Below, in pieces: positions 926 through 26,779 of a DNA stretch of 26,779 bases (the first letter of the stretch is position 1; each line of letters opens with the position of its first letter). The notes beneath the pieces are model-generated. The model was not told the DNA's origin. It searched no databases and saw nothing but the letters and a program-made list of their open reading frames with translations. Origin of the DNA: Macrostomum lignano (lineage: Eukaryota); contig NIVC01001220.1 in assembly GCA_002269645.1 (NCBI GenBank), positions 1 through 26,779 of the forward strand, written 5' to 3'. The position numbers and the translations under genes are program-made.

Positions 926-3900
926 ATGGCCACATCCTCCACACCCAAGACCAAGCCCAACCTTCGGCTTCGTGGCAGGTCCAGATCATCCATTCGCCCA
1001 GTCACCAATGGCCAGGTGATTACTCATCTCAAGTCCAGCAGCCAGGCCCATACAGGACTTGACAAGGCCCAGCCGATTCTGAAACTGGTTGGGCTACCTT
1101 CTCACTTGATGGAGTTTGTCTCTGACAATCTGAAGAAGGCACTCCTGAAAAGGATTAAGGATTTAGAGAGAGAAGCCCAAATTCTGCTGAAGAGTCACAC
1201 TCGTGAGGCTGCGTCTGGTGATGGCATCTCGACATATGAGGCCCATTTGGCACGAGAATTCGAACCTCCAGCGGCATTGCAACAGCTGTTGAACCCAATG
1301 GCAATGCCGATTGTGCCTTTGTCAACATCACCAATGCCAATGGCCTCGAACTCACCGACTCCAGCAAGGCTTGACCAATCGAAGCAGTCTGGCATGAGTG
1401 TCTCTGTCGAAGAGAAGATCGGCATCGAGGCAGCCATTGTTGATCTGCGAGTTCACAAGGCCAAAGCCAAAGTTGCGCAGCTGAAGGCCGCCCTGGCCGA
1501 GCAGAAAGCTGAAGTCCGGCGACTGAGGGCTAAGCTAGCCAAGCGGCCTGAAATTCGCGTCTGGAATCAGCGTCTCAGACGGCTACAAGGCAGATACGAC
1601 AAGCTGCGTGCTGAGCATGCCAAGCGGCAGGCCTTTGCATCATCTGCCAGCCGTAGGCGTGACCTGCGCTTGAGGCGTGCCAACAGCCGTAGCAAGTCAA
1701 GTCAGCTCGCCACTGAGAGAGTGAAGGAGCTCAGAGCCGATACCCGCAGTTTGCACGGCCTCATCTGTGAAGCAAACGAGAAGCTTCAACAGCAGAGTGT
1801 GGGCTCCATCATCACCAAGACATCACGTCCGAGTGGAGGACAGCAGTACACGAACCAGGTCATCAGCACCTGTATGCACTTGGTGCTGGACTGCCACGTC
1901 CCTGTGCAGCACGTCAAGCCAGCGATTCGACGCGTCCTCACGGACCTCGTTGGCATCGACGCCGGCAACTTGGCGCTTCCGTCGCGTTCGCAGGTCAGTG
2001 CTTTGAGCTACAGCCTTGGCAGCTGCCTAGCTAAGGCGAGCGCGATGGAGAAGCTGCTGCATCAGGGGGCAAAGGAGGACCGACCAATAACGATCTTGCA
2101 TGATGCTACCAGCAAGAAGGGCCGACACTATGCCGCCTACCAGGTAAACTTGAGTAATGCATTTTCGTGCATATTGACAAATAATTGGACTTAAAGGAAG
2201 GAAATGAATTTAATAATTAATTATTATTATTAATATTCACAAAAAGAGAACTTTTAGTTAATAAGAATGAACTTTTATATTCACAATATGCTTTGTATTA
2301 CATATGCACCATTCATAGGTTGACACTGGGGACAGCCGCCCGATGGCTGTTTCTCTTCGCGAGGTCGAGGGTGGCACCGCGAACATCTACGCCCGCGAAC
2401 TGGACTACTCGGTGGAAGAGCTGGTCGATCTGTTTTGCTCGGTAGTTCTTGCCCACTCGAGCGACGAAGAGAGACGCCGCCTGAAGTGTAATCTACTGGC
2501 ACGCGTCAACTTCCTAATGACTGACCGACACGTGGTCAACAAGTGCCTCAACGTACTGCTCAACGAGATGCGGCAGGAGCTGGCAACCCAGCAAGGCGTG
2601 AACCCACCTCCACCTGTGACTGCACTGTTCTGCGGCATGCATGTGATTGTAAATCTTGCTGCTGCCGCAGAAGCTGCGCTGCGCGAGTGGGAGACTTGCA
2701 TGGCTGCAGAGGCCGTCGGATCTGCTGCCCTCCCTGGCTTCCGCCCGTCCCAAGCTGAATCTGGCACGCAGCGTCTAATCCGCACCGTCTGCAAGGCGTT
2801 CCATGCCCTGGGCAGTGAACAGTGTGGCGTTGCGATTCCGCTTCAAACGTATCTGGAGTCGAAGGGCGCACCGTCCCTTCGTTTGGACGACTTCCGTGGC
2901 AACCGCGCCTACATCACATTTCCCAACGGGGGAAACATTTTCTGGCAGCGAGACCGCCTGTCCGAGTTCCTGGCTGAGTACACCTGCAGCAACCGCCTGC
3001 TGATCGCAGTGCAGGCTGACTTGGCATCTGATTTGCTGCTGAGTGGCTGCCGTGCACTCGGAATTGCTGACGTTCTGCTAATCCGGCCACTGTGGGTGCT
3101 CCTGCGCTGCCGAGACGTGACCCTCACGGACATGAACGAACGCTATGAGCGCGCTTGCAATTGGCTGCGCCAGCTGTCATCGTCCGAGGGCGTTACTGTG
3201 GCCAGCAGCATGATTGGCCCATTTCCCGAACTGGCCCAGACGGTTCTCCGGGACATCCAGCTGCAGGACATCTGGGCGGCGCTGACGTCTGAGCTGACAG
3301 CCTTGGAGAACGAGATTGTCGGCCAGGCTCTGCAGGTAAATATGGGTTTTGAATTATGAATGCGCTGATTAGTCACAAAGTACAGTACAGTATCAATGAA
3401 CATTAACGAATGTATAGATTGTAGCTTTTATACTTTAAAACACCACTTCAGATCATGGCGACACACATGCTTGTGTTGCTAGAGAGAGAGGTGCGTGACC
3501 ACCTGCCTGGGGGCACTCTGCGGCAGCTCACGCCAGAAGTTGCCCAGCTTGTCTCATCTGCGCCTAAGGACAACGTAGCAGTCGAGCGAGGCTTCGGGAT
3601 GCTGGATAAGTGCGTCGCAGACAGGCCCAACATGCGCCCTCTTGCGCGCGAGTCGCTTGTGCTCTTCGGCTATAACTGCACGTCCGAGTGGCTGGCCGAC
3701 AAGACGGAGCGCGAGAAGGACCTCCTTCTTACCAGGGCACGGAAGCTGGTCCCTCAGCTCGAAAAGCGAGGGAAGGAGAGCGCCGACGCCTTGCGCAGCT
3801 GCCGCCAGGAGATTCTCCGCGCCAAGCTAGCTGAAAAGCAGCGCAAGAAGGACTCGAACGCCGAGAGCATCCGATCCATTCTCCGTGTCATCGAGGCCTA

Positions 3901-4808
3901 CGGCGGACTCTGGCCAACCATCTCCAGGATGGACGCTGTGCTGCACCAACTAGCCCCTGACCAGCACGAGAAGGCCATCAAAGCACAGCTGCAACTGCAC
4001 AAAGCGACCAGTACGTGTGGGCAGAAAAATGTGTCTGTTTGCTCACTGCTTAGCATGAAAATTATGTTTCATGTAATATTTTGTAGAGATCCACCTGCCC
4101 AAGGACAAGGCCAGCCTGCTCAACTTCTCCGCGGCTGGTGTCAAGCGCAGTGTGCCTCAACTGCGAAGCCAACTGCGTGAAGTTCTGCAGATAGTGGAAC
4201 TACAGGACCAGCAAAAGGGTGCCGATGCGCCCACCGTGCCTCCGTCCGGCCTCCTGGATGCTCGCGAGCGCAAGGAGCGAGTCCGCACTGCCATTGCTGA
4301 CAGGCTGCAGCGTCGTCAACGGATTCAAGATGCAGGAGCTGTGGCTGCTCAAGCTGGGCCTGGCCTTGGTGGACGAGGCGGCGGTCGCGGACGCGGACGA
4401 GGTCGAGGTCAAGGACGAGGTCGAGGTCAAGGACGAGGTCGAGGTCAAGGAGGAGGACGAGGTCAAGGAGGAGGACGAGGACGAGGACGAGGAAGAAGAC
4501 ACGAGGATGAGGGCGACGCCATTGACGAGACCACCAATCAGCGGACGCTGGCCAACCTCCCCGATCTGGTGAGCAGAAGAATCGAGATGAAGTTCTGCTT
4601 CACAGATGGGGAGGACTGGATACCAGGCCACGTCCTCCAGCGACTGCCATCAACCTGCCAGAGCAGGGACATTCTCAGCCAGGAGTTCAAGGTTGTGTTC
4701 GATGATTTTGAAGGGGAGTACACCTATGACCTCAACAAGGACTACCTGGCTGGCGAATTGAATGTTCTCTCTGATGACGATGACGATTATGATGATGATG
4801 ATGACTAA
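926..4808 (+). CDS. Spliced DDE transposase (~1171 aa); exons 926-2143, 2319-3335, 3452-4010, 4087-4808
   Basis: Four GC-rich ORFs join in frame across three GT-AG introns (phases 0, 0, 1); total 3516 nt = 1171 aa + stop. Motifs: ILHDATSK (D1), LMTDRHVVN (D2), FCGMH (CxxH), FRGNR, KDNVAVERGFGMLD (E; resembles the hAT C-terminal 'SxxxERxFS' motif), N-terminal coiled coil. Junctions read YAAYQ|VDTGDSRPM, QALQ|IMATH and HKAT-K|IHLPKDKASLLNFS. Confidence 0.88.
2144..2318 (+). other. Transposase intron 1 (175 bp)
   Basis: cag|GTAAAC...attcatAG|gtt; AT-rich; phase 0 keeps the frame. Confidence 0.85.
3336..3451 (+). other. Transposase intron 2 (116 bp)
   Basis: cag|GTAAAT...cttcAG|atc; phase 0 keeps the frame. 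Confidence 0.85.
4011..4086 (+). other. Transposase intron 3 (76 bp)
   Basis: cca|GTACGT...tttgtAG|ag; phase 1 joins the 3455 and 4152 ORF frames. Confidence 0.8.
4368..4497 (+). repeat. Coding 18-bp minisatellite (ggacgaggtcgaggtcaa variants) encoding GRGRGQ repeats
   Basis: Tandem units are visible directly; they translate as GRGRGRGQGRGRGQ... in the transposase frame. Confidence 0.9.
4566..4769 (+). other. Spindlin/Ssty-like Tudor module at the transposase C-terminus
   Basis: LVSRRIEMKF..EDWIPGHVLQR..FKVVFDD.EGEYTYDLNKDYLAGELNVL aligns by eye to the Spin/Ssty repeat (VGKxVEHMF..DEWRGMVLAR..[28 protein letters not shown]). Confidence 0.7.
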
Positions 4809-10094: not shown

Positions 10095-11530
10095 TAATGA
10101 GATAAGAGTGAAAAGGAGAAGGAATAGACTATAAGAAGAGAGGAGAAGCAAGAGGAGGATAAGAGAAAAGATAGAAGACAAGAAGAGAGATGATGGGGTA
10201 AGGATAAGGAGTGAGCAGATAATATTGGAGTAAGAAGCAAGAGGAGGGGAGAGAGAAGAGAGAGGAAAGAGTAGAAGTGAGAAGAGGGAGAGAGAAGATG
10301 GGAGAGATGAGACAGGATCGATGACAGATGAGAGCAGAGAAGAGTGAGAAGAGAGTAGAGATGAGAGATGAAGGAGGAGAGAGCAGAGTGCAGAAAGGCG
10401 AGAGAAGAGAATAGAGGGGAGAGAGTATAGAAGAGAGAAGAGAAGAGGAGTAAGGAAAGAGAGTAATCAGAGGAGGGTAAAGAGAAGAGTACACTGAAGA
10501 TTGGAGAGTACAGATGGCAGAAAAGAGAGGGGATGAGAGTGAACACGATATCTGAGAGGAGAGAGGAGAGAGGAGTCAGATGAGGGGAAAGAGAAGAGTA
10601 CAGAGGAGAGAGGTGAGAACATATGAGTATACGAGAGTAAAGATGACAGATGAGAGAGGGAAGATAAGACTAAGAGAGCAAAGACGAGAGTGAACACACG
10701 GGAGATGGGAAAGTAGAGAGAAAAGAGGGTAGATAAGAAATAAGAGATGAGAGATGAAAGGTGAGACAAAGGGAGAGAGAGAGAGAAGTGAGTGAGGAAA
10801 GAGGAGGGGAGGGGAGAGAATCGAGAGGACAGGGGAAAGAGGGGAAAGGATGAGAGAGGGGTGAGGAGAGAGAGGGAGAGATAGAGGTAGAGAGCATGCA
10901 GAGAGAAATGAGAAGAGATAAGAGAGAAAATATAAAAGAAGAGAAAGGTGAGATAGATAAGAGAGCAAAGACAAGAGAGGAGAGGTGAAGGAAGAGACGA
11001 TAGAAGAGAGGAGAGAGAGACGAGAGAGTACAGAGTACAGAGGAGGGAGGAGAGGAGAAAGGAGAGAGGAGAAGTGTTCGGAGAGGGTAGAGTAAGGAGT
11101 GAGAAGAGGGGAGAGGGAAGAGAGAATAGAGAGTAGAGAGCAGAGAGAAGATAGTAGAGAGCAAAGAGAAGATAGTAGAGAGCAGAGAGAAGATAGTGCA
11201 GATCGAGCAGAGGGAAAATAGAGTAGAGAGCAGAGAGAAGAGAGAGTAGAGAGCAGAGAGAAAATAGAGTAGAGAGGAGAGAGTAGAGAGCAGAGAGAAG
11301 ATAGAATATAGAGCAGAGAGAAATGGGAAGAGATAAAACAGGAGAAAGGGAGAGATAAGAGAGCAGAGACGAGAGAGGAGAGGAGAGGAGAGAAAATAAT
11401 AAGAGGGAATAGACGAGAGAAGAGGGGATAGAAGAGAGAGAGAAGAGACCATAGACCAGAGAAGAGAGAAAACAGAAGAGAAGGTAGAGATAGAAGTTTC
11501 TAAGGATCCAACTTCAAAGGGACACAAGGA
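10095..11530 (+). repeat. Polypurine (AG-rich) low-complexity tract with degenerate agagagcagagagaagatagt units
   Basis: Overwhelmingly A/G on the + strand for ~1.4 kb. Confidence 0.95.
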
Positions 11531-15239: not shown

Positions 15240-15500
15240 GATTATGGCACTTGATACACCAAGGATTATTGCACTTGATAAGCCAAGGATTGTTGCACTA
15301 AATTAGAAAGGGCTTTTGCACTAGCTGAGACATTGATTTTTGGACTTGATTAGCAAAGGATTATTGTACTAAATGAGAAAATGATTATTTAACTAGCTGA
15401 GAAACTAATTATTGCACTGTCAAAAAGAGATTGTTGTGCTAGCTAAAACGTAGATTGTTACACAACCTGAGAAAGCAATTATCACATTAGTGGAGGTAAC
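15240..15500. repeat. Degenerate ~23-bp minisatellite (ggattattgcact...)
   Basis: Recurrent gattattgcact/gattgttgcact cores. Confidence 0.65.
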
Positions 15501-15524
15501 ATTTGCACTAGCTATTTGCTGTCT

Positions 15525-15845
15525 GGTGGATGCTTGCTTTCTGGGGGATGCTTGCTCTCAAGGGGGTACTTGCTATTTGAGAGATGGGGTACTTGCTATT
15601 TGAGAGAGGGGGTACTGGCTAACATGTATGGGATTCTTTCTATCTAAGGATGCTTGTTATTTAGGGATTCTTATTATCTACAGGATGCTTGCTACCTGGG
15701 TGGATGCTTCTATCTTGGGGATGCTTGCTATTTGCAGATGCTTGCTATCTGGGATGATGCTTGCTATCTGGATGGATGCTTGCTACAAGTATTAAGGGAT
15801 GCTTGCTATCTGCAATTGCTTACTTTTCATTGGGGGTGCTTGTTG
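15525..15845. repeat. Degenerate ~17-20-bp minisatellite (ggatgcttgctatct)
   Basis: More than a dozen gatgcttgctat-like cores. Confidence 0.85.
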
Positions 15846-16222: not shown

Positions 16223-17085
16223 TGATGTGTTCCTTATTACCCGACTTTCGATAATCAAGGAACAATCACTTCTAGCTCAACAGCTAGGCAACCCAGTAAG
16301 TCAAACGAAGGTATTCAATTACCTTTAATCCGGATTTGAATTTCTTGAGTAGTTCTCGCTAGGAACTTGTCAGTAGATCTCGTAGATCAGGCGCCTTGAT
16401 TCTTCAGTTGCTCTGGTCCTGGTTCCTCTTGTACTTCCGATAAGTTCTTCCGGCCGGTATCTTCCGTCAGGACCAATCAGAGGCCTCGTAGCAACAATGG
16501 GTACCCTGCGCCAAACTGCGGTCTAAATTAAGCCTCCTTCTTCTAGCAGTGCCTCTATGCACTCTAGGTATAGCTCCGGAAACCACTGATAGTCCTCTAA
16601 GATCTATCAGGGGCAGTCCTTCTGGAGACTGCAACCAATGGAGTCTAAACAGACTCAAGAGTCTCAACAGACTCAATTAGACTCAAGTCTCAATAGACTT
16701 GAGCGAGATGTCTCTAACACAACGGGCGCAAATAAGGAAGGCTTACCGCAACAACTCGACCGAGTCTCGATTGACTTGGTAGATCAGGAAGTCCTCCTAA
16801 GGCTTCCTCTTCGGAGCGCTCCTCTTCCGTGGGAGAATGGCTCCGGTACCGCTTCAGATCGCTTGTATTTATAGACAAGTTTTTGATCCAAAATAGTATC
16901 ATGACAATTCACGTGTTGCGCTAAAAGGGGAAAATGGCTCATGGCGTATTATTCTGGTAACATCTTTTTCTGGTAGCGTGATTCATTCAAAGCTTAGGCG
17001 CACATGCGTGTACTTACTTACTTATAGTAGTATTATACGATTATCTTCCTTTTTCCTCCTTTAACGGGAGGTAGAACACTCTACA
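16223..17085 (-). repeat. 3' LTR (863 bp, TG...CA)
   Basis: Matches 25958-26779 with 2 substitutions and 5 single-base indels counted by eye; minus strand starts TGTAG just after the PPT and ends ACATCA. Confidence 0.95.
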
Positions 17086-17088
17086 AAA

Positions 17089-17100
17089 TCTCCCTTTTTT
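17089..17100 (-). promoter_or_regulatory. Polypurine tract AAAAAAGGGAGA
   Basis: 3 nt upstream of the 3' LTR TG on the minus strand. Confidence 0.85.
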
Positions 17101-17265
17101 ACGAAAAAACTCGTCCCGAGTTTTAACAATAAAATTCTGTGGTGATCAGTTAATATAGGAAATAAACAATTGATTTTGTGCGCGTCTAGTGAAGCGAGGG
17201 TTTGGTCAAAACTCTAAAAACTTTTCAGTACATATTGCGGTCAAAACTCGAATATCGCGTAGACA

Positions 17266-17640
17266 TCAAGTGGCATCAGGTTTGATCCGACACCACTTTC
17301 GAAACGTGCAGTCTCGCGGCATACTATTACATAAGGGGCATCCTATAACGCCCCTACTAGCGGTTTGCTTCAAACAGTGCATGCAAATAAAATGTTGGTG
17401 GTTACAATATTGAAACGTGCGCCAAGAATAACAATAGGCACATTGTCGCAAACTATCTCTACAGAGGGGACAATTCTGCCATGGCTGAATATAATGTGAA
17501 TCGCTTAAACATTGTCCGCAAACTTTATGTTCGTTGATGCAAATAGTCGGTGGCTTGACAGCCAAGTCATCAGTTAAACATATCGGGCAGTCATATAGCT
17601 GCTGAGGCTGGGGCGCCTGTTTTGACAGTGCGTTGCCCAT
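17266..17640 (-). CDS. Accessory 124-aa tandem RING-finger protein with an N-myristoylation motif
   Basis: ATG in strong context (attATGG); MGNALSK; RING1 CPIC-x12-C-x3-H-x2-CGQC-x12-CPLC; RING2 CAYC-x8-C-x3-H-x2-CMHC-x11-CPLC. Confidence 0.85.
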   Translation of the reverse strand: MGNALSKQAPQPQQLYDCPICLTDDLAVKPPTICINEHKVCGQCLSDSHYIQPWQNCPLCRDSLRQCAYCYSWRTFQYCNHQHFICMHCLKQTASRGVIGCPLCNSMPRDCTFRKWCRIKPDAT

Positions 17641-17760
17641 AATTGTCGTCAATTTGTCGCTGTCTTTGTGTCGCTCGGATTAGTCGCCTTTTACGACAAG
17701 CTTGCGAAGCTGTAGTGCTATTCTTTATCCCGGTCACTACACGGGGTTGTTCTCTAAACT

Positions 17761-20700
17761 CTAGCGTGGTCGTAGGTTGTAGCCATGTGGCTGGCTCACA
17801 TCTGTCGTTTGAGTCTCCTCGTGCTTCGTCGCGATGTGGCGGTTCGTTGAACGCGTGCGATCAGCGTTGTCTAATGTCGGTAGAAACGTCGCTGTGTCAG
17901 TGTTGATCTTCTTTAGTCGATGAATGTGTACGTAGAACTGGTGCTGATGTGGATCTTGTACATTAGCCAGGCGTGCCGTTGTTGGTGACGTTAGTTGGAC
18001 CACTCGATAGGGTCCTTTGTACTTCTGTGCATGTTTATGCGTCTGCTGTGGCGGGTAGTGTAGGTAGACGATGTCGCCGGCCGTCAGGGTTGTCGATCTC
18101 GCGTCGTTGCCGGTGGTCAGAGCCACCTGGTTGTCAATGTTGTGCTTGGCGATCTTCCATGCGAGGTGTAGTTGCGTGACGAATTTCTGAATGGAAGTCG
18201 GTACTTCCACGTACTGCGATGGTAGCAATTGCTGTGCGAGCAGATTCGGCGGTTGGAAGTCTCGTCCAAACATTAGGAAGAATGGCGTATTGTCCGTTGA
18301 TCGATGAATAGCGCTGTTGTAGGCCATTGTTACAGATTGCAGGTAGATGATCCAGTCTTCCGGCTGTTGGTGCGCGAAATGTGTAATCATCTCGTGCAGG
18401 TTGCGGTGAAACCGTTCAACCATGTTTGCCTTCGGATTGTAGGTCGATGTGTAGATCTGCGTAATGTTGAGAATCCTTACGACTTGCTGAAACAGTTGCG
18501 ATGTAAACTGCGATCCGTTGTCCGATGTGAGGTTCTTCGGCGTGCCGTACTTGCAAATGATTTCGTTGAAGAAACTCATTGCCACTGTCTGAGCTGTGAT
18601 GTCCGGTATCGGTATGGCGATAGCAAACTTCGAGAAGATATCCAAGGCGGTTAGAATGTAGGTGTAGGCGATGCCCTGGAGACAGCTCGGTGGTAGCGGT
18701 CCGGTGATGTCGATGCTTAGACAGTCCATTGTAGTCGACTTCGGAATGGACTGTAGCTGCGGTTTCTGTCGTCGTCCTGTCTTTGATGCAGCACATGAAT
18801 GGCAGTTGTTGCAATACTGCTTGATGTCGCCGTACATAGTTGGCCAAAAGTAGTATTGTTCCACTCTCGCGATGGTCTTTGCTGCCGACAGGTGTCCAGC
18901 GAGTGGGTTGTCGTGTAGCTCGTTGAGAATTGCTTGCCGAAACGAATATGGTATGTAGATCTTGGGTTTATTGTCGCTCATCCAGTAGAGCCGTGACTTA
19001 TTGATTGTTAGGTGTTGTCGTTGCTTGCGTAGGAATTTTCGTTCCATGGGACTGAGTTTGATGTTCTTGTCGTCGTCTTTAACCGCTTGGTAGAAGTTGT
19101 CGCGCTCGGTTTCATCCACCAACTCCTTGATGTTAGGGATTGGATGAATGGCGTTGACTTCATAGGCTCTTGACAGGGCGTCCGCGGCTTTGTTGGTAAT
19201 TCCTGGTTTGTAGACGAGTTTGTAGTTGTAATCCTGGATCTTGAGTGTCATCCTGATGAGTCGGTTGTTGGTCTGTCCTTTTGTAGTTACGACGTAGGTC
19301 AATGGTGCATGATCCGTGCGTACTATCGTCTGTATTGGAGAACCATAGATGTAGTAATGAAACTGTCGCAGGGCGAACAAGACTCCTAGTAGCTCTCGTT
19401 CCGTAGCTGACCACTTTGTCTCATTTGGTTTGAGTGCTCGACTGACGTAAGCAATAGGTCGTTCCTTCTTGTCCTCGGTTTCCTGTAGTAGGACTGCTCC
19501 GAGTCCCGTTCCTGAGGCGTCTGTCTCGATGATGAAGGGCTTGTCGAAGTCCGGATGCTGTAGCAGTGCGTCTGATGTCAGCTGTCGTTTGATTTCGTCG
19601 AAACTTTCCTGTTGTCTCTGTGTCCAGTTGTCTTGCTTCCATTTGTCGAACTTGAGCAGGTCGTACAGTGGCTTTGCTGTCTTTGCGAAGTTAGGTAAGA
19701 ACTTCCTGAAGTATTGCGCAAGTCCAAGGAATGATTGGACCTTCGTTATACTGGTTGGCGTAGGAAACTTCTTCACCTTTTCCACGTTGTCTGGGTCCGG
19801 TGAGATTCCTTTGGCTGTCACCTGATGTCCCAGGTAACGCACGTTGTCTCGGAAGAATTTGCATTTAGTTGGTTGTAGCTTCAGACCTTGGCGTTGAATG
19901 AGCGCTAGGGCCTTCTCCGTAGCTTCGTAGAGTCGCTCGAAATCCTCTCCGTAGGCTAAAATGTCGTCGACATAGTGCAGCAGGTTCGTGCATCCTGCTA
20001 GCATGTATGCTGTTAGTCGACTCATCGTTGCTGGGCTGTTGCTAAGTCCCATCGGCGATCGATTGTACTCGTATACTTGTCCATTGTAGGTTTTGAAAGC
20101 CGTGTACTGTCGTGACTCTTTCTCGATTTCAATTTGCCAAAATCCATGACGTAGGTCGAACACCGTGAACAATTTTGCCGTGTTGAGCTTTGCTAGTAGT
20201 TCGGAGATCTTCGGTAGGCTTTGCTGATCCGTCGGTATGTACTTGTTCAACAGTCTGAAGTCGCATACGAGTCGTCTTTCGTTTGTCTCCTTCTTCTGTA
20301 CCAGTAGGCACGGTGAGGAGTAAGCCGAAATAGCTTTGCTGATGATGCCGTGCTTTAGCATTTTATCGATGATTTCGTCAAAGTGTTGTTGCAGATGCTT
20401 GGCGATCGGGTACGGCTTGCACTGAATTGGTTCCGTGTGCGGCAGAAGTTTGATTTCCTGTTTGATGTCCTTGGCTCGTCCGATGTCGTAATCATGATGG
20501 CAGAAGGCTTCGTTGTACTTCCACAACAGCTGTCGAACTTTCCTCTTTTGCTGTTCCGTAATCGGGCTGTCATCCAAATTGATCTTCTTTTGAAATTCTT
20601 CCTCTGTTAGTCGTGGAGTCGCTTGTTCAATCAGCATAACCGATGCTTGGGTGTTGAGATGACCGATGCACATTCCTTGTCGTAGATGAACCGTTTCTGT

Positions 20701-22281
20701 GTTCGGGTTGAAGATTTGTACTGGCAGTTGCTTATCCTTTGCAACCAGCACTAGTGCCGTAGGCATCATGATTTGATGTTTTGCCGTGACTCTCCTGTGT
20801 GGATCAAATATCATTGCTTCATCTGCCGCGCTGGTCGTTTTCGCTCTGACCCAGCATGCGCTTTCAGGCTGGATAATGACATCTTGCTGCAGAGTTACTT
20901 TCGGTAGTACTCGAATCTGGTTGATCAGCGGTTGCTCCACCGTGTCGATCCTAAACGTTTGCTTGTTGAAGTCGAAGGTCAATGGTAGTTGAAGCTGCTT
21001 GAACGTGTCGATTCCAACGATGACGTCTTGGTTTGGTAGTCTGTCGATGATGTACGTCGGGACCGTCAGCTGTTTATTAGCAATTTTCAAGTCGATATCT
21101 GCTTTTCCTAGGATGTTGAGTGAATGTCCTCCTGCTCCTGCAACTGCGATTGCTGCTGGTCGTACCGCGAGTCGTAGCTTGTTGCATAATTGTTGCGAGA
21201 TGACTGTGATCGAGCTGCCTGAATCCAGTAGTGCTCGACATGGCAAGTTGTTGACAATGACCTGAGCCATTGCTTTGCCAATCTCGGCGTGTAGCGTACA
21301 GACGTAGTTTTCCGGCCATTTTGGCTCGTGCTGTTCTGCTTGATAGTTGGGTGGTTGTATCCTTGGTGCCGTTGGTGTTGTCGGAATCGATGGATATAGC
21401 CGCGTTGCTAGTGTCGGTTGCCCTTGAACCTCACAATGTGCAGTTTCTGTTAGTTCTAAACTGTTGTCGCTTTCCGTTGTCGTTCTTTGCATTATGGCAT
21501 TCACTGTCTTCTTAGCTCTTGGACAAGTTTGACTGAAGCACCGTACGATCGATGAAATGATGAAGATTGCCGTGACAATCCACACAATGCAAGCACCGTA
21601 GAAGATGAATCCTTGATAGAGACTGCCTCTTCCATTGAGCAGCTCCCAGAAGCTATTTGTCCAAAATGATTTGATGGCGCTGTCCATTGAAACAAGGACG
21701 GGAAATCTTCCTGTCCCGGTTCCTTTGTCCTTTCTTGTGAACAGCTGGTGAATCATCTTGCGTTGGGTGATGAACGCTTGCAAGAAGTCGTTGATCGTCC
21801 ATCCTGGTGTTATCTCGTCAAGTTGGATATCGGCGAATGGCGTATACTTCGTTCTGTTGAATCGGATTTTCAAATCCTCCATGTCGTAGTTTTCGTCGAC
21901 GATTACTTCCGGTTCTGTGACGTTTGCTGTCGTTCCAGTTGTTTTGATGACGTGTAGTGCATTGTCCAGTTGATAGTAGTTTACTGCCGTGGTGCAAGGT
22001 CTCGGTATTGCGGTGCCAACGATGATGTTGTGTACCGTGTCCAAGAATCCCTGAATTCGTTTTCCTTCGTAGAACGCTTCAATCCTTGGCTTATCGTAGC
22101 AGGTTGTTGACGTGTTTGACGGCAAGATGTTAAAGTGCTGTATCGGCGTGCACTTGTATATCAACAGATGCTCGTATATTGGAACTGCCAAAACGTTCGT
22201 CATTCCGGTGATTTTACGAAAAGTCATCGTAGGGTTGACATAGTAGTTTTGTCTGGCATAATTTAAGTTGATTGCGTGCAT
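17761..22281 (-). CDS. pol: Env C-terminal half + TM + cytosolic tail fused in frame to protease-RT-RNaseH-integrase (frame open from ~22317)
   Basis: NPTMTFRKITG..CYDKP..GFLD..PC env motifs; TM FIFYGACIVWIVTAIFIISSIV (~21545-21610); LLDSGS protease; YVDD RT; IETDASG RNaseH; HHCC; D..D..E integrase; GPY motif; terminal YNLRPR. Confidence 0.97.
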   Translation of the reverse strand: MHAINLNYARQNYYVNPTMTFRKITGMTNVLAVPIYEHLLIYKCTPIQHFNILPSNTSTTCYDKPRIEAFYEGKRIQGFLDTVHNIIVGTAIPRPCTTAVNYYQLDNALHVIKTTGTTANVTEPEVIVDENYDMEDLKIRFNRTKYTPFADIQLDEITPGWTINDFLQAFITQRKMIHQLFTRKDKGTGTGRFPVLVSMDSAIKSFWTNSFWELLNGRGSLYQGFIFYGACIVWIVTAIFIISSIVRCFSQTCPRAKKTVNAIMQRTTTESDNSLELTETAHCEVQGQPTLATRLYPSIPTTPTAPRIQPPNYQAEQHEPKWPENYVCTLHAEIGKAMAQVIVNNLPCRALLDSGSSITVISQQLCNKLRLAVRPAAIAVAGAGGHSLNILGKADIDLKIANKQLTVPTYIIDRLPNQDVIVGIDTFKQLQLPLTFDFNKQTFRIDTVEQPLINQIRVLPKVTLQQDVIIQPESACWVRAKTTSAADEAMIFDPHRRVTAKHQIMMPTALVLVAKDKQLPVQIFNPNTETVHLRQGMCIGHLNTQASVMLIEQATPRLTEEEFQKKINLDDSPITEQQKRKVRQLLWKYNEAFCHHDYDIGRAKDIKQEIKLLPHTEPIQCKPYPIAKHLQQHFDEIIDKMLKHGIISKAISAYSSPCLLVQKKETNERRLVCDFRLLNKYIPTDQQSLPKISELLAKLNTAKLFTVFDLRHGFWQIEIEKESRQYTAFKTYNGQVYEYNRSPMGLSNSPATMSRLTAYMLAGCTNLLHYVDDILAYGEDFERLYEATEKALALIQRQGLKLQPTKCKFFRDNVRYLGHQVTAKGISPDPDNVEKVKKFPTPTSITKVQSFLGLAQYFRKFLPNFAKTAKPLYDLLKFDKWKQDNWTQRQQESFDEIKRQLTSDALLQHPDFDKPFIIETDASGTGLGAVLLQETEDKKERPIAYVSRALKPNETKWSATERELLGVLFALRQFHYYIYGSPIQTIVRTDHAPLTYVVTTKGQTNNRLIRMTLKIQDYNYKLVYKPGITNKAADALSRAYEVNAIHPIPNIKELVDETERDNFYQAVKDDDKNIKLSPMERKFLRKQRQHLTINKSRLYWMSDNKPKIYIPYSFRQAILNELHDNPLAGHLSAAKTIARVEQYYFWPTMYGDIKQYCNNCHSCAASKTGRRQKPQLQSIPKSTTMDCLSIDITGPLPPSCLQGIAYTYILTALDIFSKFAIAIPIPDITAQTVAMSFFNEIICKYGTPKNLTSDNGSQFTSQLFQQVVRILNITQIYTSTYNPKANMVERFHRNLHEMITHFAHQQPEDWIIYLQSVTMAYNSAIHRSTDNTPFFLMFGRDFQPPNLLAQQLLPSQYVEVPTSIQKFVTQLHLAWKIAKHNIDNQVALTTGNDARSTTLTAGDIVYLHYPPQQTHKHAQKYKGPYRVVQLTSPTTARLANVQDPHQHQFYVHIHRLKKINTDTATFLPTLDNADRTRSTNRHIATKHEETQTTDVSQPHGYNLRPR

Positions 22282-22289
22282 TTTGCAAG

Positions 22290-23726
22290 TTAGCTGGACC
22301 AGTGACGATGTAAGTGGTTAAGCTGGTTATGCAGGTTGTGATCCAGCGCCGTGATCTTTGCTGACAGCAGTCGGTTTGACACCAATCGTGGACGTTCTAT
22401 GTCGCGTCGTTGTCTCTCTTGTTGCTGATATGTTCCGTTTATGATTGCCAGGAAGGTTTGTTTGTCACCATCCTTCACGTAGACTGGTATTTCTTGCTCC
22501 GAGATGAATAGTGTCTTGTCTGTATCCTTGCATTTCAGTTTTTGCTCGACTGGTTTCTTTTGAAACGTCAGTGCCAAGTCTCCTGACTTTGCCAAAAACG
22601 TATTTGACAGTAGTCCTCCTTCAACTGTGTGATACTTTTGAAGCTTGCAGTCAATTTCCGGCTCAACTTCCCACGCGAAGAAGTATTGTCGTGATTTGTA
22701 CGGTTCCTCATAGTGTGATTGTGCTCTGTGCTCAATCTGCCATCGATAGTCTTGATGATATGTTGGACTCAGTGGTAGACTGTGTAGTTCTTCCTTCCGT
22801 AGAATCGGCGTTGGACACCATCCTTCACTGTATCGACATTCGCTTAGTTGCAGCTGTAACGATTCCATTTTCTCGTACGGATTGTAGTAGAATGGAATAT
22901 TTCTGATCAAGTAGCTGTTGCGTGCCATATATTCTTTCCATTTTCCGAAGAAGTGAATATATCGACCGTTGGCTGAATTCTTTGTTCTGAACAGCTGTGC
23001 GTTGCCGACCTTCTCATCTGGTTCCAGTTCACCATCCTTTGAAAATAGTGTTTGATTCCATTGTAGGCATTCCGCGTGCGACACATGTAGCTCATGTTGT
23101 TTAAATCGGATCCGGTTCCATTGTCCGCGCCAAACTTTTTCCACCAGGTGCTTGTCTCTGAAGCATACTATCCCGTGTTGTCGATGCTTCTTGATGTTAG
23201 CCTTGTAGAGATCGAGTGTAATCTTCTTTGGTTTTGTCTGGTTTGTCTTGAAGTAACTGCATTTGATGTCGGTTGGTATCTTGTAGATCATCGGTTGGAT
23301 ATGCGCATCCGTTGGACAAATCATTGGCTTTTCCGTTGCCGTTGCTTTGGCGACTACTGCTATCAGTAGTATCACGATGATCCAGAATAGCCAGTTTTTC
23401 CACTTCTTGGATTTTGCCGTTGTCCTTGCTGGCATTGGCTGCGATCGCCATTCGTTATCTTCCATGTCCGCATCATATTCTTTCGGTTGTTCCATTGGCT
23501 GATCCAGGCGGAAGGCTTCTGATTCGCTTTGCTTTTTGGTTATTTCATTATCTTCGTCTGCGGCTTCTTCCGATGTTTCCGTTGTTTCACTCCATTGCGT
23601 TTGGTATCTTTTCTCTGTCTTGTAGTCGACCGTTTGAATATAGGCTTCACCATTTCGTTTGTATCGGATCTCGTAGCATTCGTCGCTGTCGGAACTCGGC
23701 TTTTCTTTCACCTGTTCTTTTTCCAT
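22290..23726 (-). CDS. env: Acidic linker + internal signal anchor + N-terminal env ectodomain (frame open from ~23831)
   Basis: KKWKN-WLFWIIVILLIAVVAKATA hydrophobic signal (~23337-23394); Cys-rich ectodomain; N-glycosylation sequons (NQT, NGT); furin-like RQRR at 22404-22415. Confidence 0.8.
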   Translation of the reverse strand: MEKEQVKEKPSSDSDECYEIRYKRNGEAYIQTVDYKTEKRYQTQWSETTETSEEAADEDNEITKKQSESEAFRLDQPMEQPKEYDADMEDNEWRSQPMPARTTAKSKKWKNWLFWIIVILLIAVVAKATATEKPMICPTDAHIQPMIYKIPTDIKCSYFKTNQTKPKKITLDLYKANIKKHRQHGIVCFRDKHLVEKVWRGQWNRIRFKQHELHVSHAECLQWNQTLFSKDGELEPDEKVGNAQLFRTKNSANGRYIHFFGKWKEYMARNSYLIRNIPFYYNPYEKMESLQLQLSECRYSEGWCPTPILRKEELHSLPLSPTYHQDYRWQIEHRAQSHYEEPYKSRQYFFAWEVEPEIDCKLQKYHTVEGGLLSNTFLAKSGDLALTFQKKPVEQKLKCKDTDKTLFISEQEIPVYVKDGDKQTFLAIINGTYQQQERQRRDIERPRLVSNRLLSAKITALDHNLHNQLNHLHRHWSS

Positions 23727-23773
23727 TTCTTCATCTTTCCATTGTATTTCGTAGCCTTGATCGCTGTCGGAAC

Positions 23774-24382
23774 TTAGATTCTCCGCTCTCGTTCTTCCTG
23801 CATTCCTCTTTCGGCTTGGTAGTCGTTCGTGTCATCACGCACCTCGCAGTCGTGGTCGTTGCCGTAACTTCTACATTCTTCTTCTTCTTTCATTTCTTTG
23901 TCTTTCATGCTCGTTTTGTCGTCATCCACTGTTGTCGATTCATAGTTGTTTTCTTCGCCGGTTTTCATCTTTTCTTCGTTGCCGATGTCGCTCTCCGCCT
24001 CCTCCCTTGTCTTGTGATTTACTTTCTTCCTGTTTTCTCTGCTGTCTCCGGTGGTCTCTTTTAATTTGATCATTTCGGTTTCATTCGTCTCTTCTGTGTT
24101 GTCAGTGTTGTCCTCGTGCGTCGTCTTCTTTTCGATCAAGCTGATGTCAAGTTCCGGGACTGTGAAGTCCATTTCCAAGTCGTCAATTGTGAACACTTGC
24201 TGTTCTTGCTGTTCATTTTCCGGTGTGTACGTGATGGCATTCGCGTATCGTGGCATTGCTTGCGTCGGCTGTCTTTGTGTATCTGACGTTGCGTGGCCTG
24301 TAGCCATTACTTCTGAAGCGGCCTTCGTTTCCGAAGCGGCCATCATTTCCGGAGCGGTCATTATTTCCGAAGCGTCTATCAT
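23774..24382 (-). CDS. Acidic low-complexity linker; probable frameshifted continuation of gag (from ~24260)
   Basis: YANAITYTPE followed by E/D/T/K-rich sequence; overlaps the gag end in the +1 frame. Confidence 0.55.
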   Translation of the reverse strand: MIDASEIMTAPEMMAASETKAASEVMATGHATSDTQRQPTQAMPRYANAITYTPENEQQEQQVFTIDDLEMDFTVPELDISLIEKKTTHEDNTDNTEETNETEMIKLKETTGDSRENRKKVNHKTREEAESDIGNEEKMKTGEENNYESTTVDDDKTSMKDKEMKEEEECRSYGNDHDCEVRDDTNDYQAERGMQEERERRI

Positions 24383-25244
24383 TTCCGAAGCGTCTCATTC
24401 CTTGTTGTTGGCGATTTTGATAGTGCTGCCATGGTTTCTGCGGCTTCTGATTGTTGAATATCTGTCGCGGCTTGTCGTATCTTGTTGACCAATGAGGACA
24501 ATTAATCTGATAATGTCCTTCTTGTCCGCAGTAGTAACATCTGGCTGAGGCTTGTTCATTTCGTCTTTTTTGTTCGGCGATAGCAGCTGTCTGGTGCTGC
24601 ATTAACTTGTTTAGTTGCTGCGTCAGTTTCTGCACTTCATTGTTGCCTGTCGTCATTAATGGGGCACTGGCTTCCCATTGCATTCCGCAACGCAAAAGGT
24701 CTTCTTCGGTTTCGATATTTTCACGCAAAAGTCTATCCCGAAGTGACGGCTGTGCGTTGTTTATTACGTGCAGGATGAGGTTTTGTTCACGATCCATCAA
24801 TCGTTGTCTTTCTCTGGCGGCCAATTCTGCCGCTCCCAGTGGTGGTTGGTCCGCAGCTTGCAGCGGTGGCTGATGCAGTGCCTTAATTATCTGGCGGATA
24901 TCGTCCACAAAGGCGAGGAAGGATTCTGTTGCTTGCATCCTTCTGTTATGCAACTTGTGCAGCAGCACTGATCTGTTTGTGCCGCAACGGTTGAAATGCG
25001 CGCGCAGTTGAATGATTAGTGCTGGATAATTTTGCTGTGTTGCCGCATCCAGCTTGCCGTAAATTTCTCGCGCAGTACCTTGGAGAAGAGGTGGCAGCAG
25101 CTGTGCCTTCTCTGGATTTTGTAGGTTGTATTCCCTACATACCAGGTCAAAATGGTCGACAAATGTGTTAAAATCTTTCTCCATCGAGAAAGTACCGACC
25201 GTTTCTTTGATGTCTCTGTGTACCGTTGGATTGCGCCGCGCCAT
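24213..25244 (-). CDS. gag: Gag (capsid-like region + one CCHC zinc knuckle + RFGND repeats)
   Basis: FNTFVDHFDLVC...LLPPLLQGTAREIY capsid-like segment; CYYCGQEGHYQINC = CX2CX4HX4C; first ATG after in-frame stops. Confidence 0.9.
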   Translation of the reverse strand: MARRNPTVHRDIKETVGTFSMEKDFNTFVDHFDLVCREYNLQNPEKAQLLPPLLQGTAREIYGKLDAATQQNYPALIIQLRAHFNRCGTNRSVLLHKLHNRRMQATESFLAFVDDIRQIIKALHQPPLQAADQPPLGAAELAARERQRLMDREQNLILHVINNAQPSLRDRLLRENIETEEDLLRCGMQWEASAPLMTTGNNEVQKLTQQLNKLMQHQTAAIAEQKRRNEQASARCYYCGQEGHYQINCPHWSTRYDKPRQIFNNQKPQKPWQHYQNRQQQGMRRFGNDRRFGNNDRSGNDGRFGNEGRFRSNGYRPRNVRYTKTADASNATIRECHHVHTGK

Positions 25245-25941: not shown

Positions 25942-25955
25942 GGGCGAGATCACCA
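25942..25955 (-). promoter_or_regulatory. Primer-binding site TGGTGATCTCGCCC (possibly tRNA-Val)
   Basis: TGG 2 nt downstream of the 5' LTR; complementary to a tRNA 3' end ...GGGCGAGAUCACCA. Confidence 0.8.
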
Positions 25956-25957
25956 AT

Positions 25958-26779
25958 TGATGTGTTCCTTATTACCCGACTTTCGATAATCAAGGAACAA
26001 TCACTTCTAGCTCAACAGCTAGGCAACCCAGTAAGTCAAACGAAGGTATTCAATTACCTTTAATCCGGATTTGAATTTCTTGAGTAGTTCTCGCTAGGAA
26101 CTTGTCAGTAGATCTCGTAGATCAGGCGCCTTGATTCTTCAGTTGCTCTGGTCCTGGTTCCTCTTGTACTTCCGAAAGTTCTTCCGGCCGGTATCTTCCG
26201 TCAGGACCAATCAGAGGCCTCGTAGCAACAATGGGTACCCTGCGCCAAACTGCGGTCTAAATTAAGCCTCCTTCTTCTAGCAGTGCCTCTATGCACTCTA
26301 GGTATAGCTCCGGAAACCACTGATAGTCCTCTAAGATCTATCAGGGGCAGTCCTTCTGGAGACTGCAACCAATGAGTCTAAACAGACTCAAGAGTCTCAA
26401 CAGACTCAATTAGACTCAAGTCTCAATAGACTTGAGCGAGACGTCTCTAACACAACGGCGCAAATAAGGAAGGCTTACCGCAACAACTCGACCGAGTCTC
26501 GATTGACTTGGTATATCAGGAAGTCCTCCTAAGGCTTCCTCTTCGGAGCGCTCCTCTTCCGTGGGGAGAATGGCTCCGGTACCGCTTCAGATCGCTTGTA
26601 TTTATAGACAAGTTTTTGATCCAAAATAGTATCATGACAATTCACGTGTTGCGCTAAAAGGGGAAAATGGCTCATGGCGTATTATTCTGGTAACATCTTT
26701 TCTGGTAGCGTGATTCATTCAAAGCTTAGGCGCACATGCGTGTACTTACTTACTTATAGTAGTATTATACGATTATCTT
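25958..26779 (-). repeat. 5' LTR (about 38 bp missing beyond the window)
   Basis: Copy of 16223-17047; followed on the minus strand by AT and the PBS. Confidence 0.95.
26599..26606 (-). promoter_or_regulatory. Putative LTR TATA box TATAAATA (3' LTR copy at 16866-16873)
   Basis: Consensus match in the U3-like part of both LTRs. Confidence 0.5.

Follow-up and report, generated by a model that had tools for sequence, protein, structure and literature searches.

A truncated two-RING open reading frame behind pol in a Gag-Env-Pol retrotransposon of Macrostomum lignano and the accessory gene family from which it derives

The 124-aa open reading frame (ORF-A) found behind pol in a retrotransposon of Macrostomum lignano is very probably a truncated derivative of a dispensable accessory gene family. 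Full-length members of this family encode two RINGs followed by a helical domain and, by the pattern of their substitutions, are functional genes under purifying selection. Somewhat better than even odds are given to the full account, in which the family supplies E3-type ligases that act in trans on a target in host defence, with an active-looking RING1 and a pseudo-RING2, and in which the copy described here is a remnant. The window is the whole stretch of DNA analysed, 26,779 nt of contig NIVC01001220.1. The features of the element are as follows, in the order in which the element is read.

25958..26779, minus strand: 5' LTR, cut by the window end
25944..25955, minus strand: primer-binding site
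17761..25244, minus strand: Gag-Env-Pol coding region (gag with zinc knuckle, env, protease, RT, RNase H, integrase), in pieces
23334..23390, minus strand: internal signal/anchor helix between Gag-spacer and Env, hydropathy 2.41
21613..23333, minus strand: Env ectodomain, putative class III fusion-protein type, in two frames in the window
21556..21612, minus strand: Env transmembrane helix, hydropathy 2.43
21343..21399, minus strand: cluster of late-domain-type motifs (LYPSI, PTAP, PPNY) between the Env transmembrane helix and the protease
17676..17749, minus strand: non-coding block between the pol stop and ORF-A, with a predicted H-type pseudoknot and two short hairpins
17266..17640, minus strand: ORF-A, 124-aa form (N-terminal extension and two RING clusters; front half of a 222-aa gene)
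17620..17640, minus strand: N-myristoylation-type start (G2, S6, K7), within an 11-15-residue extension of one clade only
17461..17589, minus strand: RING1, C3HC4 with C-x3-H spacing, SIAH-like by profile, with E2-face residues and linchpin Arg61 kept
17329..17442, minus strand: RING2, all eight ligands present, lacking the linchpin Arg/Lys and thus a pseudo-RING
17146..17319, minus strand: remnant of the start of the helical domain (52% identity, 56 codons), spanning the last ORF-A codons and beyond
17268-17266, 17208-17206 and 17148-17146, minus strand: in-frame stops in the helical-domain remnant
17089..17100, minus strand: polypurine tract
16223..17085, minus strand: 3' LTR, 863 nt

The element has the features of Ty3/gypsy errantiviruses of the GAG-ENV-POL type, namely LTRs, a primer-binding site, a polypurine tract, the domain order PR-RT-RNase H-IN and an env located between gag and pol. 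Its 5' and 3' LTRs are 99.2% identical over 826 nt (2 mismatches, 5 gaps), and a 4-bp target duplication was observed in sibling copies, the 5' end of the window copy being cut. A supplementary entry for Mlig_errantivirus_2 (PMC13524379) gives an 863-nt LTR, a 10.59-kb span and a primer-binding site that are those of the window element. Several other copies carry gag-env-pol as a single stop-free frame of about 2,460-2,540 codons, and the insertion site of the window was recovered on a second contig (L004), where the 3' flank matches at 454 of 454 bases and the interior differs by 10 gaps. The three gag-env-pol frames of the window were therefore rejected as programmed and are probably assembly indels. 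The assembly type is described as redundant (PMC12801592), so that match counts overstate insertions. All five Env members examined gave weak, sub-cut-off matches to the family Monjiviricetes_fusion (PF24664; best E 5.8e-8, the first member scoring 23.4 bits against a cut-off of 27), and two of the five gave such a match to the gB family; the Env sequence found no match in the PDB. While the polyprotein is being processed, Gag might be kept at the membrane by the internal signal helix.

ORF-A starts 120 nt past the pol stop (17761) and ends ~165 nt ahead of the polypurine tract (17100-17089). The initial annotation had reported a 124-aa reading frame between the integrase stop and this tract, starting MGNALSK and containing two C3HC4-type RINGs, together with a Gag that starts MARRNP and has no Gly2. 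These observations were confirmed, the reading frame being on the minus strand and the Gly2-less Gag start recurring in 5 of 5 other gag starts checked. The frame was also called intact, which is misleading: it represents the front half of a 222-aa gene and is followed, after its stop, by a decayed piece of the lost domain. ORF-A does occupy what was called the canonical env slot, but the slot is not specific to this gene. In other env-pol families it holds unrelated ORFs of ~250-360 aa, 160-310 nt past the pol stop (L110/L114, L112/L113 and L116/L128), of which those of L110 and L114 are alike by eye, as are those of L112 and L113. Three such ORFs from distant elements had no Pfam match, and tblastn found no RING gene in distant env-pol elements.

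As read from the sequence, RING1 is C18-x2-C21-x12-C34-x3-H38-x2-C41-x2-C44-x12-C57-x2-C60 and RING2 is C67-x2-C70-x8-C79-x3-H83-x2-C86-x2-C89-x11-C101-x2-C104, each with eight Cys/His ligands at RING spacing. Pfam searches with the 124-aa protein detected RING1 alone, under the cut-offs (E 0.003-0.02); RING2 is supported by ligand spacing, by conservation and by the structural match of a paralogue's second cluster to RING folds. The motif rule for N-myristoylation is an MGxxxS/T start with K/R at position 7, and the MGNALSK start of ORF-A satisfies it. Among 1606 other ORFs of at least 60 aa in the fetched loci, a redundant set, MGxxx[ST][KR] starts were found in none and MGxxx[ST] starts in 2; judged by these counts, a chance origin of the motif is unlikely.

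A genome search with ORF-A returned at least 145 matches (150 of 212 candidates scored), and the best 30 are all located behind an element's integrase. By form of ORF-A, these 30 loci comprise 15 of 124 aa, 6 of 144 aa, 5 of 222 aa and 4 of other lengths, the 124-aa form having 17 matches at 100%. Siblings of the window carry a 222-aa ORF-A (RING-RING-helical domain) followed by a 210-aa paralogue, ORF-B, and the gag-env-pol of a long-form sibling is 99.4% identical to that of the window. Relative to this long form, the window lineage has undergone a net loss of ~1.06 kb at this position: its sequence from about codon 110 of ORF-A onward derives from another sub-lineage, and the rest of the helical domain and the second gene are absent. 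Sister clades, at 66-72% Pol identity, contain two or three paralogous genes of 200-222 aa, each with the RING-RING-helical architecture. The paralogues are only 19-27% identical to one another, yet conservation across 21 members reaches at least 90% for each of the 16 zinc ligands and for a Trp-Pro motif in the helical domain. The window copy is probably a decaying remnant.

Outside the genome, a protein search with the 124-aa ORF-A gave 12 candidates, none at E<=0.001. Profile searches recovered seven true-looking relatives (P0001, which is named M. lignano, P0002-P0005, P0017 and P0135), known as proteins alone; six of the seven, from public runs, contain all or part of the architecture, and they group with both A and B/C types. 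The remaining listed matches were judged by matched range to be generic RINGs and were set aside. P0001, a 660-aa 'RING-type domain-containing protein' that contains ORF-B, is seemingly a chimeric gene model made of ORF-B copies and LTR sequence. Locus scans found no related loci in viral contigs or in metagenomes. Two B/C-type genes were seen ~3 kb upstream of a distant pol (33-43% identity) in L140:4114-5604 and L141:742-2232, with no ORF-A match in the stretch. A further family (L038 and L124) is almost without pol but retains gag, part of env, the non-coding RNA block and both RING genes intact between identical 917-nt LTRs, an arrangement compatible with a benefit in cis as well as with youth. 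Dense, rearranged and partly broken copies with repeated RING cassettes were noted on contigs C2121, C1130, C87, C272 and C4009 of G000 (L031, L034, L046, L047 and L121), and these clusters could be piRNA-cluster-like traps.

AlphaFold models of the proteins reached pLDDT values of 87.5 and 86.9, with RING E3 ligases as top fold matches. In structure searches, model residues 13-65 matched RINGs and the second cluster of ORF-B matched RINGs at Z 4.4-5.1. The best PDB sequence match was the SIAH1 RING (E 8.9e-5). The Pfam family Sina_RING was detected in 18 of 21 members at E<=0.1; the window copy scored 15.5 bits against a cut-off of 29.3, some paralogues passed this cut-off for the RING part alone, and the Sina C-terminal family was found in none of the 21. 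The linchpin position of RING1 is Arg in 20 of 21 members and Lys in the other, Pro58 is present in 20 of 21, and the E2-face hydrophobic residues are kept, whereas RING2 has Arg or Lys at its linchpin position in 0 of 21. These residue signatures suggest an active-looking RING1 and a pseudo-RING2. The full-length helical domain had no Atlas match; its best hit (VIA, Z 5.4) is within the range of common helical arrangements, so that no new fold is claimed and the label of substrate arm was assigned to it by elimination. HSV ICP0 and NCLDV RING proteins were among weak structural matches (E 0.004-0.17; Atlas 0.87-0.91), which cover one RING only, do not reach E 0.001 and extend to no homology outside the RING. 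A complex prediction for ORF-A with ORF-B, run without alignments, gave no verdict (score 0.00).

When the host genome was scored with the RING1 profile, SIAH reached 37 bits and a cluster of RING/B-box-like (TRIM-like) genes 26-34 bits. The latter (L137-L139 on C210, with similar genes on C1491 and C2920) are clustered host-like genes with RING and B-box-like exons, and their RINGs are spaced C-x3-H like those of the element; they are candidate donors or targets. The suggestion in the initial annotation that ORF-A is an E3-ligase accessory gene survives, as a reading of sequence and predicted fold, for the full-length family but not for the 124-aa copy.

Full-length genes gave dN/dS values of 0.14-0.25 for the RINGs and 0.17-0.33 for the helical domain, with upper confidence bounds of 0.29-0.82; these figures rest on unsaturated pairs, most between-clade pairs being saturated. 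The two LTRs of a copy agree at 99.3% or more in 12 of 15 short copies and in all 7 copies with the 144-aa form, and at 99.7% or more in 5 of 6 long copies. Counts of non-synonymous and synonymous changes within the 144-aa group are 20 and 12 for ORF-A against 12 and 98 for pol (p 1e-8), and those in ORF-A strike five zinc ligands and create one stop; compared with intact lineages the difference has p 0.07, and the synonymous excess over neutrality p 0.03. The 124-aa group, with 5 non-synonymous and 7 synonymous changes (p 0.057 against pol), holds too few changes to call decay. A further lineage with at least 20 matches has a dead ORF-A that stops at codon 70 and in which substitutions have removed two RING1 ligands. 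Its LTR pairs are at least 99.6% identical in 10 of 10 sampled copies, and because this dead stub has spread recently, ORF-A must be dispensable in cis. Truncated and dead lineages alike have transposed with env retained. Disruption of the ORF in most sibling elements had been named in advance as a ground for rejecting the original proposal; this is partly borne out, many siblings being disrupted.

Both RINGs are whole in the well-amplified 124-aa form, as would also be seen if a RING-only product were useful. Such a product might act at the membrane as an anchored decoy that sequesters E2~ubiquitin, or might poison host RING ligases (SIAH or the expanded TRIM-like set) by forming mixed dimers. 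The many young 124-aa copies, most with both RINGs and Gly2 whole, would fit this, as would the host TRIM-like cluster with its shared C-x3-H spacing and RING1 profile scores of 26-34 bits beside 37 for SIAH. However, zinc ligands are lost in the 144-aa relatives, the dead-stub lineage spread equally well, and stops that arose after the loss cut the frame back step by step, in the manner of decay. A decoy role is accordingly considered improbable, and the reading of the window copy as a remnant of an accessory ligase gene is preferred.

The extension bearing Gly2 forms a single nested clade (support 100/100) in a midpoint-rooted tree with several long branches, and 28 of the best 30 loci fall inside this clade. 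Five of 10 ORF-A rows lack Gly2, as does every one of the 12 B/C rows and the 5 outside homologues. On this distribution Gly2 is a derived addition in one clade, so the conservation that the initial annotation had made a test of its proposal was found within the clade and not across the family. Between sub-lineages of the Gly2 clade (dS ~0.7), G2, S6 and K/R7 are kept while 5 of the first 15 residues differ, and the persistence of the motif despite these changes indicates that the signal is probably real within the clade. Ser2 replaces Gly2 in two copies at different insertion sites. Unlike the Gly2 of ORF-A, the Gag-Env-Pol layout and the Gly2-less Gag are common to all clades.

Motifs of the late-domain type (PTAP, PPxY and YPxL) are absent from the 124-, 222- and 210-aa proteins. 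In the polyproteins of env-pol elements down to ~30% Pol identity, in the stretch that separates the Env helix from the protease, P[TS]AP was found in 8 of 11, YPx[LI] in 9 of 11 and at least one of them in 11 of 11 (L033, L040, L045, L049, L110-L112, L114, L116, L118 and L123, a set with several close pairs and a proline-rich linker); such motifs also occur in distant elements without RING genes. Late-domain motifs behind the Env helix may be how these Gag-Env-Pol polyproteins bud without a myristoylated Gag. A myristoylated ORF-A could instead be pictured as a membrane E3 for budding or traffic, ubiquitylating Env or Gag for ESCRT or removing a surface restriction factor. Retention of G2, S6 and K-or-R7 between sub-lineages that differ at 5 of the first 15 residues (dS ~0.7) is in keeping with such a role, as are the ESCRT-type motifs of the polyprotein. 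Against this, the signal is confined to one clade, distant elements without RING genes have the same motifs, and a PPxY motif would recruit host NEDD4-type ligases (PMC3509680). The membrane role is considered improbable, slightly more so than the decoy.

The 74-nt block between pol and ORF-A is nearly unchanged across the clade, whereas its flanks have diverged. A model with a pseudoknot and two hairpins was drawn by eye from the clade sequences; in 16 distinct variants, which represent three related types, 96.6% of cells pair, compared with 33-41% for slid partners. Two loop-loop pairs vary on both sides, a count not above that in shuffles (230 of 500), and plain folding, to which pseudoknots are outside the method, gave z -0.56. 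Rfam gave no match for 17676-17749, its best hit (E 3.2) lying elsewhere within the 901 bases searched. Run over 24 sources, the RNA model gave 8 matches, each inside the RING-gene clade, and 0 in 11 distant elements; viral contigs had 0 matches to the RNA pattern. Readings of the block as an HDV-like, twister or pistol ribozyme, considered by eye, were dropped because the pairings that they need are not conserved. The block persists unchanged in the dead-stub lineage.

With regard to expression, a YAG is present within 2 nt of the ATG in 11 of 18 B/C starts, drawn from few independent lineages, compared with 12 of 126 ATGs in gag-env-pol (for an example ahead of an ORF-B/C ATG, see L049:7930-7939). 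From its placement, this YAG is a possible cis- or trans-splice acceptor; the host trans-splices ~30% of its genes and resolves operons in this way (PMC8629364). In contigs from four runs presumed to be RNA, which span the element, 0 of 8 listed joints end at the start of ORF-A or ORF-B; contigs cannot show RNA ends, and this result speaks neither for nor against splicing.

The neighbourhood of the block raises the alternative that the RING proteins are non-ligase regulators of element RNA, Rev- or CERV-like, that act on the adjacent structure. This would agree with the restriction of RNA-model matches (8) to the RING-gene clade and their absence from 11 distant elements, and an element of Caenorhabditis elegans is described as having an accessory export protein (PMC10309623). 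It would not account for the conserved linchpin and E2-face residues of RING1, nor for a block that is unchanged where ORF-A is dead, and a single RNA target needs no two or three diverged paralogues. Regulation of element RNA is thus held to be quite unlikely.

The other proposal of the initial annotation, that ORF-A is a stand-alone matrix resembling arenavirus Z, understood here as one that would replace Gag myristoylation and drive budding, was largely refuted and is now very unlikely. It was suggested by small size, Gly2 and a RING, and RING2 of the paralogue ORF-B does align to Lassa Z (Z 5.1, rmsd 2.0, 47 residues), but this match is tied with many cellular RINGs (Z 5.7-4.4). At E<=0.1, 0 of 21 members matched the arenavirus Z RING family zf-P11, whose model was among those searched. 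Classical late domains are also missing from Tacaribe Z, which buds nonetheless (PMC3509680), so their absence from the three proteins would not by itself exclude budding by ORF-A. Beyond that absence, however, Gly2 is missing from half of the ORF-A rows and from every B/C and outside row, the ancestral protein is twice the size of Z, truncated and dead lineages transpose with env retained, and the polyprotein has a signal anchor and late motifs of its own. Finally, the notion of a recently captured, neutrally evolving host gene fragment, which the initial annotation had raised against itself, draws on the likeness of RING1 to host SIAH and TRIM-like RINGs and on the truncation of the window copy, but it is refuted for the family by purifying selection on the full-length copies, is further opposed by paralogues at 19-27% identity, by outside homologues of both types and by the placement of the best 30 genome matches behind integrase, and is given almost no credence.

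Under the preferred account, RING1 would bind and activate E2~ubiquitin, as its residue signatures and the analogy with viral RINGs suggest, and RING2 would be a non-catalytic partner packed against it, forming a built-in RING dimer. Choice of the substrate would fall to the divergent helical domain, the likeliest target being a host factor for silencing or restriction; an anti-restriction role is established for viral RING proteins such as ICP0, while arenavirus Z illustrates that a RING need not be a ligase. The product is proposed to act in trans, so that copies losing the gene still transpose; their transposition demonstrates dispensability, and the shared benefit would follow from action in trans. 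In one clade the myristoylation signal, evident as a motif, would move ORF-A to membranes. Expression is probably from a subgenomic message set by the conserved RNA block, or by way of splicing or trans-splicing. Since the window lineage has lost the helical domain and gene B, its product could amount to no more than a pair of RINGs at the membrane that lacks a substrate arm.

A more far-reaching picture may be entertained, though only tentatively. In it, a clade of enveloped retrotransposons would carry its own multi-gene catalytic E3 battery (active RING, pseudo-RING and a helical substrate domain of no known family) that degrades flatworm silencing or TRIM-like factors in trans; the subgenomic or trans-spliced message would be set by an undescribed pseudoknot RNA, one paralogue would have been retargeted to membranes by myristoylation, cheating lineages such as that of the window would drop the cassette, and the signals for budding would be carried by the Env tail within one continuous Gag-Env-Pol polyprotein. 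Because full-length, truncated and dead lineages occur side by side in nature as young insertions, the question of cis or trans action and of cheaters can be tested, and transgenesis exists for this worm (PMC12801592).

Elsewhere in the window, long ORFs without a convincing Pfam match (926-4572, plus strand) lie near long inverted repeats (1-167/14177-14343 and 6213-6631/13765-14183), and together these are probably a DNA transposon. Positions 10220-11480 are a GA-rich simple repeat and 15498-15729 an 18-nt tandem repeat.

To our knowledge, the anti-defence genes of animal retrotransposons are poorly known. An element RING family under selection would point directly to the host factors by which enveloped retroelements are kept in check in stem cells and the germ line; the interest thus lies in the full-length cassette, and the 124-aa ORF is less important than first proposed. 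Extra genes behind pol, the Gag-Env-Pol layout and the element family are already known. GAG-ENV-POL errantiviruses with an HSV/gB-type Env have been described from nematodes, bryozoans and flatworms (Chary and Hayashi, PMC13524379); they have the same layout, and Mlig_errantivirus_2 among them matches the window element as noted above. 'RING' occurs 0 times in the text and the seven supplements of that paper, and the text is also without the terms 'late domain', 'PTAP', 'myrist' and 'matrix'. LTR elements of bdelloids bear family-specific non-env ORF3 genes behind pol that are gained and lost and typically have spliced messages (Rodriguez 2017, PMC5408684). Those genes encode GDSL esterases, DEDDy exonucleases, coiled-coil proteins and TM proteins, whereas here two or three paralogues of one family are present; RING and ubiquitin are mentioned 0 times in the text of that paper. 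In the supplements of the Macrostomum paper, the RING entries among the matches listed are host gene annotations. No title or abstract in the open literature searched dealt with RING genes of LTR elements; an annotation of this kind could be present in Repbase, Dfam, subscription papers, Sacco 2022, the earlier Macrostomum LTR classification or bioRxiv supplements. The full-length RING cassette family therefore looks undescribed.

Among known proteins, the SIAH/Sina E3 ligases are alike in RING1 spacing, profile and best PDB sequence match, but the element proteins lack the SIAH zinc fingers and substrate-binding domain, have two RINGs and an unrelated helical domain, and mostly score below the Pfam cut-off. 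Viral RING E3s (HSV ICP0 and the RING proteins of large DNA viruses) share a virus-encoded C3HC4 RING, the match covering one RING. Arenavirus Z, a protein of 90-99 aa with one RING and late domains that is essential (PMC3509680), is similar in Gly2 and RING fold; ORF-A differs in its two RINGs, its extra domain at full length, its lack of a late domain and its dispensability. Vif, Vpu and Vpx are adaptors for host cullin ligases, and retroviral anti-defence genes that use ubiquitin borrow the ligases of the host in this way. The RING genes described here would resemble them as accessory genes that turn ubiquitin on host restriction, except that the catalytic RING would be encoded by the element itself.
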